Below the pieces are notes generated by a model. That model ran no database searches and had not been told where the DNA came from. It was given only the letters and a program-made list of their open reading frames with translations. The position numbers and the translations under genes were made by a program. A stretch of DNA of 64,000 nt, from IMG/VR virus record IMGVR_UViG_3300045988_158256; one strand, written 5' to 3'. Positions 1,397 to 51,715 of this stretch are shown one piece after another; position 1 is the first letter of the stretch, and every line of letters begins with the position of its first letter. Source of the stretch: a virus. Lineage: Duplodnaviria; Heunggongvirae; Uroviricota; Caudoviricetes.

Positions 1397-1906
1397 TTAA
1401 TCCCACTCAATCCAGTTGTAAACGATACGAAGTGACGGGCGCACAGCGGCAGTCACATCTTCGGTACTAAAGTCGATTGCATCACTGTAGATTTTGCAGT
1501 CCAACATTTCAATTGTTGTAGCAGCTTTTGTCACAGCGTTAACCCCGGAAGATTTGGATTCAGGGGTAGCAGCCATCGTGATATCAACATAGTCCTTCGC
1601 CGCAATGCGATCCTTGATGAACTGAAGAATATCGCCTTCGATAGTCTCCACGCACTGGACCTGGATTTCCCCAGAGTTTCGAATTGGTCCGTGCTGGTTG
1701 AACTTCACACCATTCGGACCATAGTCCTCCACATCCTCGCGTGTCATTTCAGGGATTTGCGACGTGCGAACCAGTACGCTGATATCTTCATGGCCTGCAA
1801 AAGTGAGCTGGAATTCAGAAGATACCAGTCGTTCGCCTTTGGCCGCGTTGGCAGTATAGCGGCCCTTAATAAATTTACGGTTTCCCTTAGTGTTATTGTG
1901 CCCCAT
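1397..1906 (-). CDS. virion protein, tail tube-like
   Basis: 169-aa ORF in the operon with sheath-like and head-like genes; size and position fit a tube protein; assignment by synteny only. Confidence 0.4.
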   Translation of the reverse strand: MGHNNTKGNRKFIKGRYTANAAKGERLVSSEFQLTFAGHEDISVLVRTSQIPEMTREDVEDYGPNGVKFNQHGPIRNSGEIQVQCVETIEGDILQFIKDRIAAKDYVDITMAATPESKSSGVNAVTKAATTIEMLDCKIYSDAIDFSTEDVTAAVRPSLRIVYNWIEWD

Positions 1907-44292: not shown

Positions 44293-45486
44293 GTGACCTG
44301 GGACGATCACAAGAAGAATTTTGCTCGCCTGGCGCGAGATGGTGGTTACACCATCGCACAATATGCCGCCGAGTTTAATCTCAACCCAAACACCGCACGT
44401 CGTTATCTCCGTGCATTCAAAGAAGACACCGGAACAGCGGACAGCCGTAAGCCAAATAAGCCTGTCAGAAAACCACTAAAAAGCATGATCATTGATCACG
44501 CTAATGATCAACGTGCAGGTGATCACGTTGTGGCTGAAATGGCTGAAAAACAAAGAGTTAATGCTGTTGTCAGTGCCGCAGTCGAGAACGCGAAGCGCCA
44601 GAATAAGCGCATAAATGATCGTTCTGATGATCATGACGTGATCACCCGCGCCCACCGGACCTTACGTGATCGCCTGGAACGCGACACCCTGGATGATGAT
44701 GGTGAACGCTTTGAATTCGAAGCTGGCGATTACCTGATAGATAACGTTGAAGCGCGGAAGGCCGCGCGCGCTATGTTGCGTCGGTCCGGGGCTGATGTTC
44801 TGGAAACCACTCTTCTGGAAAAGTCTCTCTCTCATCTCCTTATGCTGGAGAACGCCAGGGATACGTGTATTCGCCTGGTGCAGGAAATGCGCGATCAGCA
44901 AAAAGACGATGATGAAGGTACTCCGCCTGAATACCGTATCGCGAGCATGCTAAACAGCTGTTCCGCGCAGATAAGCAGCCTGATCAACACCATTTACAGC
45001 ATCCGGAATAACTATCGAAAAGAAAGCCGGGAGGCGGAAAAGCACGCTTTGTCTATGGGGCAAGCTGGCATTGTTAAGCTGGCATACGAACGAAAGCGTG
45101 AAAATAACTGGTCAGTGCTGGAAGCAGCTGAATTCATTGAGGCGCATGGCGGGAAAGTGCCGCCCCTGATGCTGGAGCAAATCAAAGCCGATCTGCGTGC
45201 TCCTAAGACCAATACCGATGATGAGGAAAGGCAAACAGCCGTCGGTGGCCCTTCTCTTGAAGATCTGGACAAAGTTGCGCGAGAACGGGCCGCCAACCGC
45301 CGCGCCGATGCCGCATTGTGGATTGAGCAGCGTAGGGAAGAAATCGCCGATATCGTTGATACAGGCGGTTATGGAGATGTTGATACTGAAGGTGTATCAA
45401 ACGACCCATGGCTGGAACAAGACCTGGACGAAGACGAGGAGGAAGACGAAGAAGTTACCCGCAAGCTATACGGGGATGATGATTAA
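44293..45486 (+). CDS. pacA: terminase small (pac-recognition) subunit PacA
   Basis: 397 aa; contains the hexamer pac site internally. Confidence 0.8.
44486..44644. promoter_or_regulatory. pac packaging site (TGATCA hexamer clusters with Dam sites)
   Basis: Four TGATCA hexamers at 44486-44525 and three TGATCR at 44616-44644 inside pacA. Confidence 0.85.
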
Positions 45487-46970
45487 TGGCCAGAAGTTGC
45501 GTAACGGATCCACGTTGGCGCGAGCTGGTGGCGCTATATCGTTATGACTGGATTGCTGCCGCTGATGTTTTGTTCGGCAAAACACCTACCTGGCAGCAGG
45601 ATCTGATTATTGAGTCTGTGCAGGAACAGGGTAGCAAGACATCTGTTTCGTCTGGTCACGGTACCGGGAAATCAGACATGACTTCTATCATGATCATGTT
45701 GTTCATAATCATGTATCCCGGTGCCCGCGCCATTATCGTTGCGAACAAAATTCAGCAGGTAATGACCGGTATATTCAAGTACATCAAGATAAACTGGGCT
45801 ACTGCCACCAGCCGTTTTCCATGGCTTGCTGATTATTTTGTTCTGACAGAAACCGCTTTCTATGAGGTTACTGGTAAAGGTGTATGGACTGTAGTACCGA
45901 AGGGCTTTCGTCTGGGAAGTGAAGAAGCTCTCGCCGGTGAACACGCAGATCATCTTCTGTATATTATCGATGAAGCCTCCGGTGTCAGTGATAGAGCTTT
46001 CGGTATCATCACCGGTGCTCTTACCGGACAGGATAACCGCATCTTATTGCTGTCACAGCCTACACGCCCAAGCGGCTATTTCTACGATACACACCATAAA
46101 CTGGCCAAGCGTCCTGGTAACCCTGATGGCGTTTATACGGCGATCACGCTTAACAGTGAGGAATCACCGTTGGTAACGCCAGCATTTATCAAAATGAAGC
46201 TGGCGGAGTACGGCGGGCGTGATAACCCTATGTACATGATTAAGGTACGCGGCCTATTCCCTAAATCACAGGATGGCTTCCTTCTTGGACGTGATGAGGT
46301 TGAACGTGCAACGCGGCGGAAAGTCAAGATTGCCAAAGGATGGGGCTGGCTTGCATGTGTGGACGTTGCTGGTGGTACGGGACGGGATAAGTCCGTTATC
46401 AATATCATGATGGTGTCCGGCCAGCGAAATAAACGCCGTGTAATCAACTATCGAATGCTGGAATACACAGACGTTACAGAAACGCAGCTTGCCGCCAAAA
46501 TTTTCGCAGAATGTAATCCTGAGCGATTCCCAAATATCACCATAGCGATAGACGGCGATGGCCTGGGTAAAGCAACGGCGGATCTGATGTACGAGTATTA
46601 TGGTATTACCGTACAGCGTATACGCTGGGGTAAAAAGATGCATAGCCGTGAAGATAAGAGCCTGTACTTTGATAAACGTGCTTATGCCAACGTTCAAGCC
46701 GCAGAGGCCGTAAAATCTGGTCGTATGAGACTGGATAAGGGTAATGAAACTATTGAGGAAGCGTCGAAAATCCCTGTAGGGATTAACTCCGCAGGTCAAT
46801 GGAAGGTGATGAGTAAGGAGGATATGAAGAAAAAACTCAACCTGCACTCACCAGACCATTGGGATACATATTGTTTCGCTATGCTGGCGGATTATGTTCC
46901 CCAGGATGAAGTGCTTAGCGTCGAAGACGAAGCGCAGGTTGATGAAGCTCTGGCATGGCTTAATGAATGA
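45486..46970 (+). CDS. pacB: terminase large subunit PacB
   Basis: 494 aa; ATG overlaps pacA stop. Confidence 0.7.
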
Positions 46971-46973
46971 ATA

Positions 46974-46990
46974 TTTGCTCTAATAAATTG
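46974..46990 (+). promoter_or_regulatory. C1 operator-like site upstream of the c4-icd-ant module
   Basis: TTTGCTCTAATAAATTG, 15/17. Confidence 0.6.
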
Positions 46991-47122
46991 TGTTTTTTAA
47001 CTACCGATGTTACATTGAGCCTGACCTCTTGCGCCTTGAGGCATTTTCGGTTTATGCTTATCAGGCACCTCATTAAAACGGGTGCCGGGATTGGCCTCCC
47101 GCTTAAGTCTAAGGCGATACAG

Positions 47123-47150
47123 ACGCCGCTCGCGTCTTTTTTTTGTATCG
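47123..47150 (+). terminator. hairpin terminator
   Basis: gacgc-cgct-cgcgtc stem-loop followed by T8. Confidence 0.55.
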
Positions 47151-47173
47151 GCGTACACGCACACCTCTACAAT

Positions 47174-47249
47174 GGTGGGCTGTATGGGGCTACCTTCGGG
47201 TAGGCTGGTTACCTTGGACGCCAGTAAGGCCAACTCCGTACAGTCCACC
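47174..47249 (+). ncRNA. c4-like antisense immunity RNA (candidate)
   Basis: 76-nt structure: 14-bp closing stem ggtgggctgtatgg / ccgtacagtccacc (two G-U), internal UUCG hairpin ctacc-ttcg-ggtag; TACAAT -10-like hexamer just upstream; directly precedes icd. Confidence 0.5.
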
Positions 47250-47309
47250 GCCAGCAAGATTGGTCTCTTCTGCGGTGGTTACATACCAACGTCTAAGGAG
47301 GCTGCCAAT

Positions 47310-47531
47310 ATGGCTACTATCCCTACCCCAACTCATCCTGAATTTATCTGGCGCTTTTACTCCTGCCAAAAACGTCACTATCACTTCGTTATTGCACCGA
47401 CAGAAGATGAGGCCCGCTCTCAGCTTCCTGACGCCCCATGTATTTTCTCTGCCCGTTTTTCCACTGATTCACGCAATTCTCTCAGTTACTGGTGCCTCCC
47501 TGTTAACGCTTCTGCTCAGGAGGGACTATGA
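47310..47531 (+). CDS. icd: Icd-like cell division inhibitor
   Basis: 73 aa; TAAGGAGG RBS; HPEFIWRFYSC...VIAPTEDEARSQL...ARFS pattern typical of Icd-like proteins; stop overlaps ant start (ATGA). Confidence 0.65.
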   Translation: MATIPTPTHPEFIWRFYSCQKRHYHFVIAPTEDEARSQLPDAPCIFSARFSTDSRNSLSYWCLPVNASAQEGL

Positions 47532-48646
47532 GAACGTCATTAGTCACCCGTGAAGAGATGATCGAGGCAATTGAACAGCACACTGCCTGTATCAGTACCA
47601 GGGATATACCAGGCGTTATTGCCAACTACTTCATGATCACCAAACAACTTTACCGGAGAAAGGACAAGAACGCGGTTCACCGTATCCTGTTGTCTGATAT
47701 CCGCGAATACCTGCTCGAACAGGGTCATCTGAATTACGCAACCGCCGCAGCCGAAGCACGCAAGGAGGCACACAGAATGAAAGCAACTAACGTTAAATCA
47801 GAAAAAATTCATGCACCTTCAGTTCAAGAATCGGAGCTGGTGGTTGTTCAGAATCAGTCTGATGAAATTCCCGTTCTGGAATGGCAGGGAGTGCGTGTAG
47901 TGACAACCGAGACTCTTGCTAGAGGGTATGGGACAGAAACAATCCGTATTCGCCAAAATCATCATGAGAACAAAGTACGCTTTGTTGAAGGGAAGCACTT
48001 TTTCAAAGTTGAAGGAGAATCATTGCGCGAGTTGAAGCACAGAGTAGCTTTAAACTACTCTGTAAAAATTGCTCGCAATGTTCGCTCACTCACCCTCTGG
48101 ACAGAACGCGGCGCAGCCCGCCACGCTAAAATGCTCGAAACCGATCAGGCATGGGCATTCTTTGAAAAACTGGAAGACAGCTACTTCCGACAAAAAGAAC
48201 AGCAACCGATCGCAATCCCCCAGACGCTTCCTGAAGCCCTACGCCTGGCTGCCGAACTGGCTGAACAAAAGCAACTTCTGGAACAGAAAGCCCACCAGCT
48301 AAATCAGCAGCTGGTGGCCGCCGCTCCTAAAGTCGATTTTGCCGACCGGGTATCAGTAGCTAAAGGGATCCTGATTGGGAATTTTGCAAAGGTTGTTGGA
48401 CTTAAACAAAACGCGCTGTTTGTCTGGTTACGGGAGAACGGCATCCTGATAGCGTCCGGTGGACGTAAAAATGTGCCGTTCCAGCAGTACATCAACGCGG
48501 GGTATTTCACGGTGAAAGAAGTGGTGCTGGATGATGAAGATGGCTACCAGATACGGTTGACGCCTCAATTAACGGGTAAAGGCCAGCAGTGGTTGACGCG
48601 TAAACTGCTCGATGCTGGCTTGTTAAAACCGGTGGCGGCTGAATAA
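47528..48646 (+). CDS. ant: antirepressor (ORF6N plus KilAC/ANT domains)
   Basis: Central ORF6N-like segment and C-terminal KilAC-like segment; in-frame internal ATG at 47777 with AAGGAGG RBS suggests a shorter Ant2-like form. Confidence 0.7.
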   Translation: MRTSLVTREEMIEAIEQHTACISTRDIPGVIANYFMITKQLYRRKDKNAVHRILLSDIREYLLEQGHLNYATAAAEARKEAHRMKATNVKSEKIHAPSVQESELVVVQNQSDEIPVLEWQGVRVVTTETLARGYGTETIRIRQNHHENKVRFVEGKHFFKVEGESLRELKHRVALNYSVKIARNVRSLTLWTERGAARHAKMLETDQAWAFFEKLEDSYFRQKEQQPIAIPQTLPEALRLAAELAEQKQLLEQKAHQLNQQLVAAAPKVDFADRVSVAKGILIGNFAKVVGLKQNALFVWLRENGILIASGGRKNVPFQQYINAGYFTVKEVVLDDEDGYQIRLTPQLTGKGQQWLTRKLLDAGLLKPVAAE

Positions 48647-48655
48647 TAGAAGAAT

Positions 48656-48673
48656 GCCCGGTTGATGCCGGGC
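48656..48673. terminator. bidirectional terminator between convergent ant and c1
   Basis: gcccgg-ttgatg-ccgggc hairpin flanked by A/T-rich runs. Confidence 0.6.
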
Positions 48674-48678
48674 ATAAT

Positions 48679-49530
48679 TTATTGCGCGCTTTCGGGGTTG
48701 TCGTTTACTGGCTGCCCCTTCTTGGTTTTACGGCTGCGCGTAACTGATGCGGCTGACTTAACCTTTTTCTCTTCGCGAGTGATGGCAATTTGTTTTTTTA
48801 CATTTTCAATATCTGCCAGGCGATATATTTTTGCTTGCGGCCAGCGGTCGCAGATGATCGGTTCTATGGAGTCATAAAGGCTAAATTTTGCTTTTTCGAA
48901 TTCACCGTTGATGATAATTCCATCACGGAGAGTTTCATCGCAGATAAACACGCCACACAGTGGCACATGGTAACTAACTGATTTACCATCATTGTAGTTA
49001 GGGCTACTGGAAATGTAGTGGACGCGCAGCATTGTTTCGCTAAAGCCGTGTACGCGCATACGGAATTTTTCATCCTCCGGGTACTGCTTCATTAGCTCTT
49101 TTGTTGCTTCCAGGTTCTCTATGTATTTCGCACTGTGCTCATTGATCCCCGCGCTTTTTTGGATGCGAATGTCCTTATCAATCAGATGAATAATGCGGCC
49201 AGCGGTCATGTTGACGCTGTTCACAGCTTCTGTCTGATAAGTTGTAACCTTACGCACACCGCGAAGGATGTTAGGCACTGGATATAAAATAGTCTTTGGG
49301 ATATTGAGGTCTGGATACTGTTCCAGTTCCCGCGCCATTAAAGTCCATTTATCAATTTCAGCCTGAATGCTGTCCGTTTCTTTGAACGGCAGAACGACAA
49401 CCGGGCGAACAGGACGACCGTCGCTGGCGGCATCAACGTGTTGGGCGCGTGCAACAGCTTTTTTTAGAAAGAGATCCCTGAAGCTGACGAACTCCTGGTA
49501 CAGTTGTTCGCCGTAGACATAATTTATCAT
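48679..49530 (-). CDS. c1: C1 repressor of lysis
   Basis: 283 aa as for P1 C1; adjacent to coi and loxP-cre; many C1 operator copies in the window. Confidence 0.75.
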   Translation of the reverse strand: MINYVYGEQLYQEFVSFRDLFLKKAVARAQHVDAASDGRPVRPVVVLPFKETDSIQAEIDKWTLMARELEQYPDLNIPKTILYPVPNILRGVRKVTTYQTEAVNSVNMTAGRIIHLIDKDIRIQKSAGINEHSAKYIENLEATKELMKQYPEDEKFRMRVHGFSETMLRVHYISSSPNYNDGKSVSYHVPLCGVFICDETLRDGIIINGEFEKAKFSLYDSIEPIICDRWPQAKIYRLADIENVKKQIAITREEKKVKSAASVTRSRKTKKGQPVNDNPESAQ

Positions 49531-49640: not shown

Positions 49641-49850
49641 TTATTGTGAGTCTGGCTGGTTAGTGGCCATGAGATATTCGATTGTGTCAGTGAGATCATC
49701 CAGGTCGTCTTGGGTGATGCGGTACTCCTGATTGGATATCTTTGAGTAGTGTTCAGCAATGGCGCGGGCAGCGTCGGTTTCGGCGGGGTCTACAGATAAA
49801 GCGTTAGAGCAATGTCTAACGTCGTCGATGGTTGGTGGAATGAAAGCCAT
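49641..49850 (-). CDS. coi: C1 inactivator Coi
   Basis: 69 aa, directly upstream of c1 on the same strand. Confidence 0.65.
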   Translation of the reverse strand: MAFIPPTIDDVRHCSNALSVDPAETDAARAIAEHYSKISNQEYRITQDDLDDLTDTIEYLMATNQPDSQ

Positions 49851-50683: not shown

Positions 50684-51715
50684 ATGTCCAATTTACTGAC
50701 CGTACACCAAAATTTGCCTGCATTACCGGTCGATGCAATGAGTGATGAGGTTCGCAAGAACCTGATGGACATGTTCAGGGATCGCCAGGCGTTTTCTGAG
50801 CATACCTGGAAAATGCTTCTGTCCGTTTGCCGGTCGTGGGCGGCATGGTGCAAGTTGAATAACCGGAAATGGTTTCCCGCAGAACCTGAAGATGTTCGCG
50901 ATTATCTTCTATATCTTCAGGCGCGCGGTCTGGCAGTAAAAACTATCCAGCAACATTTGGGCCAGCTAAACATGCTTCATCGTCGGTCCGGGCTGCCACG
51001 ACCAAGTGACAGTAATGCTGTTTCACTGGTCATGCGGCGGATTCGAAAAGAAAACGTTGATGCCGGTGAACGTGCAAAACAGGCATTGGCGTTCGAACGC
51101 ACTGATTTCGACCAGGTTCGTTCACTCATGGAAAATAGCGATCGCTGCCAGGATATACGGAATCTGGCGTTTCTGGGGATTGCTTATAACACCCTGTTAC
51201 GTATAGCCGAAATTGCCAGGATCAGGGTTAAAGATATCTCACGTACTGACGGTGGGAGAATGTTAATCCATATTGGCAGAACGAAAACACTGGTTAGCAC
51301 CGCAGGTGTAGAGAAGGCACTTAGCCTGGGGGTAACTAAACTGGTCGAGCGATGGATTTCTGTCTCTGGTGTGGCTGATGATCCGAATAACTACCTGTTT
51401 TGCCGTGTCAGAAAAAATGGTGTTGCCGCGCCATCTGCCACCAGCCAGCTATCAACTCGCGCTCTGGAAGGGATTTTTGAAGCAACTCATCGATTGATTT
51501 ACGGCGCTAAGGATGACTCTGGGCAGAGATACCTGGCCTGGTCTGGACACAGTGCCCGTGTCGGAGCCGCGCGAGATATGGCCCGCGCCGGAGTTTCAAT
51601 ACCGGAGATCATGCAAGCTGGTGGCTGGACCAACGTAAATATTGTCATGAACTACATTCGTAACCTGGATAGTGAAACGGGGGCAATGGTGCGCCTGCTG
51701 GAAGATGGCGATTAG
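50684..51715 (+). CDS. cre: Cre tyrosine recombinase
   Basis: 343 aa MSNLLTVHQNLPALPVDA...; essentially the P1 Cre sequence as recalled; loxP 420 bp upstream. Confidence 0.97.
   Translation: MSNLLTVHQNLPALPVDAMSDEVRKNLMDMFRDRQAFSEHTWKMLLSVCRSWAAWCKLNNRKWFPAEPEDVRDYLLYLQARGLAVKTIQQHLGQLNMLHRRSGLPRPSDSNAVSLVMRRIRKENVDAGERAKQALAFERTDFDQVRSLMENSDRCQDIRNLAFLGIAYNTLLRIAEIARIRVKDISRTDGGRMLIHIGRTKTLVSTAGVEKALSLGVTKLVERWISVSGVADDPNNYLFCRVRKNGVAAPSATSQLSTRALEGIFEATHRLIYGAKDDSGQRYLAWSGHSARVGAARDMARAGVSIPEIMQAGGWTNVNIVMNYIRNLDSETGAMVRLLEDGD

Follow-up and report, generated by a model that had tools for sequence, protein, structure and literature searches.

A predicted C4-type immunity antisense RNA in a second, immI-like antirepressor module of a P1-like phage-plasmid

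Introduction

The 76-nucleotide (nt) segment 47174-47249 of IMG/VR record IMGVR_UViG_3300045988_158256, a Caudoviricetes sequence of 64,000 nt (this whole stretch is called the window below), very probably encodes a C4-type immunity antisense RNA, one that forms part of a second antirepressor switch, resembling immI, carried by a P1-like phage-plasmid. The RNA is followed on the same strand by icd, a cell-division inhibitor homologue, and by the antirepressor gene ant, and is preceded by a short leader RNA of the IsrK type. The analysis reported here addresses the family and structure of the RNA, its four complementary sites and how they covary, and the gene content and architecture of the locus.

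Structure and family of the RNA

Folding of 47174-47249 gives a minimum free energy (MFE) of -40.1 kcal/mol, compared with -27.1 +/- 3.05 kcal/mol for dinucleotide-preserving shuffles (n = 200), none of which is equally stable (z = -4.26). The MFE structure consists of a long closing stem (47174-47189 with 47234-47249) around a UUCG-capped hairpin (CUACC-UUCG-GGUAG, 47190-47203), a second stem-loop (47204-47225) with a loop of 10 nt, and a single-stranded junction of 8 nt (AAGGCCAA, 47226-47233). Both hairpins had been recognized in the original prediction, which was made from the letters alone; the long closing stem was also seen there, but comprises 16 base pairs (bp) with three G-U pairs, rather than 14 bp with two. 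The proposal that the RNA is c4-like is borne out by the Rfam C4 model (RF01695), which matches at 75.9 bits (gathering score 45; E = 4.7e-13 over the whole 64-kb window). The match is full length (model positions 1-87, window 47168-47255), and adds a 17th stem pair (U47173-G47250) and a CCA tail (47251-47253). The likeness to P1 c4 holds for the family but not for the locus, which is that of a paralogous second module between pacB and c1 and not the canonical immI locus of P1.

In an alignment of 12 homologues, compensatory changes on both sides are found in 13 of the 22 consensus C4 pairs; in hairpin 2, for example, CUGG/CCAG of the window is replaced by CCGG/CCGG in phage RCS47. RNAalifold, run on a MAFFT alignment, mis-registered hairpin 2 (a gap shifts the P1-type rows), and the support for this hairpin is taken from the Rfam alignments and the window-type rows. 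The C4 structure at this locus is real and conserved. The stem resembles a tRNA acceptor and is followed by G-CCA (47250-47253), and the purine-CC tail is kept in P1, in the Salmonella prophage Gifsy-1 and in the window-type copies, features that fit processing by ribonuclease P (RNase P). Hartmann et al., in work on P1 in 1995, are said to have found that RNase P makes the 5' end of C4.

Complementary sites on both sides of C4

In the original prediction the RNA was placed directly upstream of the icd ribosome-binding site, and pairing partners in the downstream leader had been sought by eye without success. About 45 nt in fact lie between the C4 3' end and the icd Shine-Dalgarno (SD) sequence, and they hold two sites, a2 and b2, complementary to the RNA; two further sites, a1 and b1, lie upstream. 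The sites of the window were found by a complementarity scan permitting G-U pairs, and the a and b sites of P1 were taken from its curated GenBank annotation. The recognition elements a' and b' fall in the single-stranded junction and in the loop of hairpin 2, respectively (Table 1). As RNA, the b'/b2 pair reads CCUUGGAC / GUCUAAGG, b2 being the site that overlaps the SD of icd. The order and spacing of a1 and b1, C4, and a2 and b2 are as in P1, where a1 and a2 are both TTGACAG, b1 is GTTAGTGC and b2 is GTTAGTGA, and where C4 binding at a2/b2 is annotated as repressing icd-ant translation. When the C4 flanks were subjected to dinucleotide-preserving shuffling, a single site of the observed length occurred in 1.9-6.1% of shuffles, and all four jointly in 0 of 5000.

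Covariation across related loci

A pattern for the conserved C4 core retrieved approximately 120 IMG/VR loci, corresponding to 86 unique sequences, among which there are 10 b' loops, 8 a' segments and 18 a'/b' combinations. The longest duplex between the a' or b' of each locus and its own flanks was compared with that formed by non-cognate elements, and the cognate duplexes are longer at all four sites: 8.1 versus 5.8 bp (b upstream), 10.4 versus 6.2 bp (b downstream), 7.1 versus 5.9 bp (a upstream) and 7.0 versus 5.7 bp (a downstream). For four window-type classes the routine returned a spurious a1, with ties resolved to the first match; in the a' class of Stx-converting phages, the true a1 stands at the expected position in a three-way alignment. 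This alignment, of the window, Stx2 phage F039 and the second module of RCS47, has a1, b1, b', a', a2 and b2 changing together on a conserved scaffold. Site offsets are fixed, and define two subfamilies, a P1-immI type (-88, -75, +80 and +108) and a window type (-80, -65, +86 and +116); a2 is at +86 in all window-type loci, and b2 at +116. In every class examined, b2 overlaps the SD. The concerted change of the sites and the RNA is strong comparative evidence that the predicted pairing is functional.

Within each subfamily the C4 scaffold is almost invariant, and it is a', b' and their four targets that vary. The a' and b' elements occur in mixed combinations, one b' being found, for example, with two different a', which suggests recombination or diversifying selection on immunity specificity.

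The leader RNA and its relation to IsrK

The RNA encoded 5' of C4, which the original prediction did not mention, matches the Rfam isrK family (RF01394), whose founding small RNA binds Hfq, over its full length. It is formed by two hairpins, with a1 in the loop of the second, a linker that contains b1, and an intrinsic terminator; the downstream operon lies on the same strand. The Rfam family c4-a1b1 (RF03163), which shares a clan with C4, aligns with both of these hairpins in the window leader at 20.5 bits (E = 0.0074), below its threshold of 46.7, and matches the leaders of P1, of the canonical module of phage vB_EcoM-673R5 (673R5 below) and of Gifsy-1 at 48-56 bits. Conversely, the isrK model scores P1-type leaders at 35-41 bits, below threshold. 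This pattern of scores indicates that the two models describe diverged versions of one leader, and on these comparisons the window leader is best described as a diverged, IsrK-type variant.

The same arrangement is found in Gifsy-1, where Rfam detects isrK (79.3 bits) and then C4 (69 bits). Hershko-Shalev et al. reported compensatory mutations showing that G28 and G31 of Gifsy-1 IsrK pair with C162 and C159, respectively (PMC4825925). When the published coordinates are mapped, G28 and G31 fall in a1 (UUGGCGU), and C159 and C162 of 'orf45' fall in a' (ACGCCAA), so that these pairs belong to the a1:a' helix; the first orf45 AUG (A107) is the AUG of AUGGUGGGG at the 5' end of the Gifsy-1 C4, and a1 of the window is homologous to Gifsy-1 IsrK nt 26-32. 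The same study found that over-expression of the short IsrK in trans raises antirepressor translation more than 100-fold (PMC4825925, Table 1), detected a stable processed RNA, STnc1160, downstream of IsrK, and drew a comparison with the CI RNA of phage P4, with no mention of P1 or C4 (PMC4825925). A 2025 review keeps IsrK and c4 as separate entries (PMC12197685), and no paper linking IsrK to C4 was found in the literature searched, which is not proof that none exists. Judged by the mapped sequences, the IsrK mechanism of Gifsy-1 and the C4 mechanism of P1 are two views of the same module.

A second module between pacB and c1

Positions 46900-47600 are 99.6% identical to Escherichia phage vB_EcoM-673R5 (Punavirus) and approximately 86% identical to phages RCS47 and JL22, and the window therefore comes from a P1-like phage-plasmid. 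Three tRNA genes (18373-18448, 18451-18526 and 20331-20406; Asn-GTT, Thr-TGT and one with anticodon CAT) are typical of a P1-like genome. In P1 the spacer between pacB and c1 is only 24 bp, whereas the window has a module of 1708 bp in its place (46971-48678), with P1 homology ending at 46968 and picking up again at approximately 48680. The module contains, in order, a C1 operator, promoters, the IsrK-type a1/b1 leader with its terminator, C4, icd, ant and a terminator. The c1 gene beyond it is full-length and intact (283 codons); the GenBank record of 673R5 has the c1 region annotated as three short fragments (locus L001, 5802-6625), unlike the intact c1 of the window.

The C4 of the window is not at the canonical immI place (sim to kilA-repL). 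In P1, c4 is annotated at 48343-48419, between sim and kilA, a position that would fall approximately 4 kb before the start of the window (bplB lies at window 1397-1906). The phages 673R5, RCS47 and JL22, all close relatives, contain a canonical immI in addition to the pacB-c1 insertion. In 673R5 the recognition elements of the canonical C4 are CAUUCGU (b') and CUGCUAA (a'), and cross-module b' duplexes have energies of -4 to -7 kcal/mol, compared with -11 to -14 kcal/mol for cognate ones. Across the 86 unique loci, no a' or b' sequence is common to the two subfamilies. Together with the weak cross-module b' duplexes, this makes the two antirepressor switches look orthogonal. Separately, in the canonical leader of 673R5 (locus L003, approximately 1670-1680) b1 reads TACGGGAATG where TACGAATG is expected, an apparent 2-nt GG insertion that weakens b1:b' pairing.

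Proposed mechanism

The following scheme draws on experiments with the homologues in P1 and Gifsy-1 where it concerns RNA processing, repression in trans, polarity and the leader as a decoy. Transcription would start just 3' of pacB at two promoters, a distal one controlled by C1 and a weak proximal one. Most transcripts would end at the leader terminator, giving an IsrK-type RNA of approximately 77 nt that carries a1 and b1, and read-through transcripts would carry C4-icd-ant. C4 would be excised from this precursor, with the 5' cut made by RNase P, aided by the tRNA-like stem and the G-CCA tail. The mature C4 would act in trans, its a' and b' pairing with a2 and b2 in the icd leader. The icd gene would then go untranslated because b2 covers the SD, and no antirepressor would be made because ant is coupled to icd and untranslated icd RNA is subject to polarity. 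Without Ant, C1 would stay active and lysogeny would be kept. The leader repeats, as a1 and b1, both sequences of the mRNA target. Its most likely role is that of a decoy or competitor that captures C4, in cis when part of the precursor and in trans when released as a short RNA, and it could in this way shift the system towards Ant synthesis.

Several points weigh against this scheme. A G-U wobble is present in every b pairing and in the a2 pairing, and the duplexes are therefore short (7-9 bp). The proximal promoter has weak hexamers, which the consensus scan did not pick up. Expression and processing at this locus are predicted from homologues, the P1 annotation labels the role of a1/b1 only 'putative', and the Gifsy-1 authors explained their data by a cis structural switch with an upstream open reading frame (ORF), not by a trans-acting C4 (PMC4825925). 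As regards orthogonality, the palindromic core GGCC of a' makes a 4-bp match near the canonical SD (-8.8 kcal/mol), so that complete orthogonality of the two switches is not proven.

Comparison with known systems

The closest counterpart is the C4 of P1 and P7 (immI, c4-icd-ant1/2), which is of the same Rfam family and has the same long closing stem around a UUCG-capped hairpin and a second hairpin, with b' in the second loop, a' in the junction, b2 over the icd SD and a purine-CC tail after the stem. A C1 operator and two promoters are likewise found upstream, and Icd (80% identical) and Ant (56% identical) downstream. The systems differ in place (sim-kilA in P1, pacB-c1 in the window), in recognition elements (a' AGGCCAA and b' CCUUGGAC in the window; a' CUGUCAA and b' UCACUAAC in P1) and in site offsets, and the window has an IsrK-type leader and an ORF6N central domain in Ant. 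In RCS47 and JL22 the pacB-c1 insertion likewise comprises isrK, C4, icd and ant, with a' GUCUCAA and b' CCUUUGAC (RCS47) or CCUUUUGC (JL22). The RNA genes of this insertion are unannotated in the records examined. For pTZ20_1P and RCS47, Venturini et al. described an insertion of 'two short hypothetical orfs and ant' that separates pacB from c1, with no RNA mentioned (PMC6906374), and D6-like plasmids (pYU39_89) have been reported to contain a second antisense-RNA/icd region (PMC6799933).

Outside the P1-like group, the IsrK/orf45 (STnc1160)/AnrP locus of Gifsy-1 shares the isrK leader, the C4 directly downstream, the a1, b1, a2 and b2 sites and the antirepressor gene. It differs in having no icd, with the antirepressor gene directly after C4, in its recognition elements (a' ACGCCAA, b' CGGUGA) and in belonging to a lambdoid prophage, in which the repressor antagonised is not C1. 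Stx-converting phages such as Stx2 phage F039 (LC710660, in which both RNAs are annotated) share the scaffold and the site offsets, with approximately 79% nucleotide identity over the leader, C4, the a2/b2 spacer, the SD and the first codons. They differ in a' (GUCCUAA) and b' (CCUUGAUUG) and in the upstream promoter region, which lacks a C1 operator. The gene after C4 in these phages (F039, locus L125, 2742-3389) is unrelated to Icd or Ant beyond the first approximately 11 residues (MATIP..PE; compare window 47310-47342). Since only these residues are alike, the conserved, portable cassette runs from the leader past the SD and takes in the first codons of the following gene.

A more distant parallel is the satellite phage P4, in which CI, a processed immunity RNA from the leader of its own operon, pairs with repeats up- and downstream of itself (seqA and seqC). 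P4 CI causes transcription termination, and does not cover an SD; to our knowledge it has no sequence or Rfam relationship to the C4 described here.

Alternative interpretations

The explanation given for Gifsy-1 can be carried over to the window. The C4-shaped region would then not act primarily as an RNA in trans but would be part of a translationally inactive mRNA, with its a' and b' paired in cis by a1 and b1 of the leader, an upstream ORF from AUG 47172 would have to be translated to turn on the downstream genes, and a short IsrK-like RNA would activate in trans. The isrK model match (60.8 bits) is in line with this, as is the MFE fold of the full read-through RNA, in which a1 pairs with a' and b1 with b' in cis. 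ATG 47172 and ATG 47184 coincide exactly with the pair of orf45 start codons in Gifsy-1 (nt 107 and 119), the frame of the former is open for 46 codons into the icd ATG, and experimental support exists in Gifsy-1 (PMC4825925). However, there is no SD before ATG 47172, and the open frame, although present in 21 of the 24 window-type loci, is weak evidence because it is common to closely related sequences; orf45 is conserved in nucleotides and not in amino acids (aa), as expected of an RNA gene (review, PMC12197685). Gifsy-1 itself yields the stable processed STnc1160 from the same region (PMC4825925), and carries in addition an a2 of the P1 type and a b2 that lies over the SD of the antirepressor gene. 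In the window, icd has a strong SD of its own, covered by b2. With all its parts taken together, the cis switch is considered rather unlikely to be the better account, and it is largely compatible with the trans-acting C4, to which it may add a further layer, the two differing mainly in emphasis.

Control by transcription termination, in the manner of P4 CI, was also considered. Here C4 would pair with a1 and b1 on the nascent leader, enforce leader termination and so autoregulate read-through. The sites a1 and b1 are directly 5' of the intrinsic terminator, a geometry like that of P4 seqA and CI; the Gifsy-1 authors raise the P4 analogy in their Discussion, and over-expression of Gifsy-1 IsrK gave 8-fold more transcription of a downstream fusion (PMC4825925). 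The translational effect in Gifsy-1 was 139-fold against this 8-fold, however, and constitutive STnc1160 left the IsrK effect unreduced (PMC4825925). The position of b2 over the SD in every class examined points to translational control as the conserved core. This mode of control is therefore improbable as the principal mechanism, and a P4-like termination effect would be at most an additional layer on trans repression by C4.

The suggestion that the hairpin arose by chance, or that the region belongs to a small ORF encoding a protein, can be given almost no credence. It could draw on a 78-aa ORF on the + strand (46967-47203) and an 86-aa ORF on the - strand that overlap the region, on gp120 of the JL22 record (locus L126, 1568-1774), which is annotated across the promoter, the leader and the 5' part of C4, and on the 'two short hypothetical orfs' cited by Venturini et al. 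(PMC6906374). Two Rfam models above threshold, compensatory covariation in the stems, and the clustering of substitutions in the mutually complementary a/b elements all speak for RNA instead. Both ORFs were rejected as coding, since 1-base and 15-base indels between homologues break their frames across the leader, which also indicates that the JL22 'hypothetical protein' call is an annotation artefact.

Operator, promoters and neighbouring genes

The features of the locus are collected in Table 1. The C1 operator-like site at 46974 overlaps the -35 of the distal promoter. Across the window there are 14 C1-operator-like 17-mers with at most 3 mismatches to ATTGCTCTAATAAATTT (0.36 expected), at 13841, 17687, 17698, 27926, 31550, 31599, 33691, 43667, 46974, 49625, 50089, 50172, 51733 and 61170, a distribution that fits the dispersed C1 regulon of P1. 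A sigma-70 consensus scan called no + strand promoter 5' of the leader, and the two promoters are therefore predicted only from alignment to those annotated in P1. The proximal -10 aligns with the annotated -10 of P1 (TATAGT) and with TATATT of Stx phages, and the predicted transcription start at approximately 47065 is position 1 of the Rfam isrK model. The ant start overlaps the icd stop (ATGA), implying translational coupling, and Ant shares 56% identity with P1 Ant1; the N- and C-terminal parts are conserved between the two proteins, and the central domain is not the same. The proteins of the locus were identified from family models and by comparing them directly with their P1 counterparts. 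The bidirectional terminator sits in the 32 bp that separate ant from the convergent c1, where it would limit antisense read-through into c1.

Table 1. Features of the pacB-c1 module and its neighbours in the window
Feature	Position	Strand	Description and basis
pacA	44293-45486		upstream neighbour
pacB	45486-46970		directly 5' of the module
C1 operator-like site TTTGCTCTAATAAATTG	46974-46990	+	2 mismatches to the P1 C1 operator consensus; aligns with P1 Oc4/Op51
Predicted distal promoter (P1 P2c4/P51a homologue)	46988-47016	+	-35 TTGTGT (46988-46993), 17-nt spacer, -10 TACATT (47011-47016)
Predicted proximal promoter (P1 P1c4/P51b homologue)	47029-47058	+	-35 TTGCGC (47029-47034), 18-nt spacer, -10 TATGCT (47053-47058)
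IsrK-type a1/b1 leader small RNA	47065-47142	+	Rfam isrK RF01394, 60.8 bits (gathering score 50), full length
a1 TTGGCCT	47091-47097	+	loop of leader hairpin 2; 7 Watson-Crick pairs with a'
b1 GTCTAAGG	47107-47114	+	8 bp with b', one G-U among them
Leader intrinsic terminator	47121-47144	+	stem 47121-47137, then T-run; terminator scan; fits the terminator hairpin of the isrK model
Predicted RNase P cut	between U47173 and G47174		leaves 3' tail G47250-C-C(-A)
C4 antisense RNA, predicted mature form	47174 to ~47252	+	ends by analogy with the annotated 77-nt C4 of P1
b' recognition element CCUUGGACG	47212-47220	+	hairpin 2 loop, single-stranded in MFE fold; complementary to b1 and b2
a' recognition element AGGCCAA	47227-47233	+	junction, single-stranded in MFE fold; complementary to a1 and a2
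a2 TTGGTCT	47260-47266	+	icd leader; 7 bp with a', one G-U among them
b2 CGTCTAAGG (= CGUCUAAGG)	47290-47298	+	9 bp with b'; overlaps the icd SD
icd SD AAGGAGG	47295-47301	+	overlapped by b2
icd	47310-47531	+	ATG at 47310; 73-aa cell-division inhibitor homologue, 80% identical to P1 Icd; NCBIfam phage_ICD_like, 49.8 bits
ant	47528-48646	+	372-aa antirepressor; Pfam ORF6N and KilAC/ANT domains
Bidirectional terminator hairpin	48654-48675	both	terminator scan; 9-bp, GC-rich; right end of the inserted module
c1	48679-49530	-	NCBIfam equivalog phage_rep_C1, 610.9 bits
coi	49641-49850	-	
cre	50684-51715		

Distribution and significance

The 349-bp segment 46972-47320 matches 276 plasmids in PLSDB, mostly E. 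coli plasmids of approximately 95 kb, and in 79 of them the identity is 99% or higher. The exact specificity class of the window occurs 18 times in the locus set (the window and locus L001 included), with P1-like flanking genes in 17 of the 18 and, in most, the full pacB-module-c1-cre context. The leader-C4 cassette is approximately 79% identical in more than 100 Stx-converting phages, with both RNAs annotated in two records. The C4 family and this kind of module are known, and a routine Rfam scan finds the RNA; what is new is the un-annotated member, the analysis of its specificity and the unification of IsrK with C4. In the P1-like records examined, both RNA genes are unannotated or lie under a "hypothetical protein" call, an annotation that can be corrected.

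A second, differently keyed C4-antirepressor module should alter which relatives a phage-plasmid superinfects or excludes, a range that matters because P1-like phage-plasmids carry resistance and virulence genes. The IsrK-C4 mapping also gives a1/b1 a concrete and testable role, that of a C4 decoy. Tentatively, and with somewhat more doubt than conviction, these elements can be joined into one proposal, in which two orthogonal RNA-keyed switches operate side by side, the a'/b' barcode has been diversified by phage competition, IsrK is a general anti-C4 decoy, and the whole is one portable device. If the barcode reading is true, competition between related phages would be diversifying a set of no fewer than 10 b' and 8 a' variants carried by a near-invariant scaffold. 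If the proposal holds, the IsrK and C4 literatures would describe one cassette, consisting of the leader, C4, the target sites, the SD and the first codons, that can be fused to unrelated effector genes.

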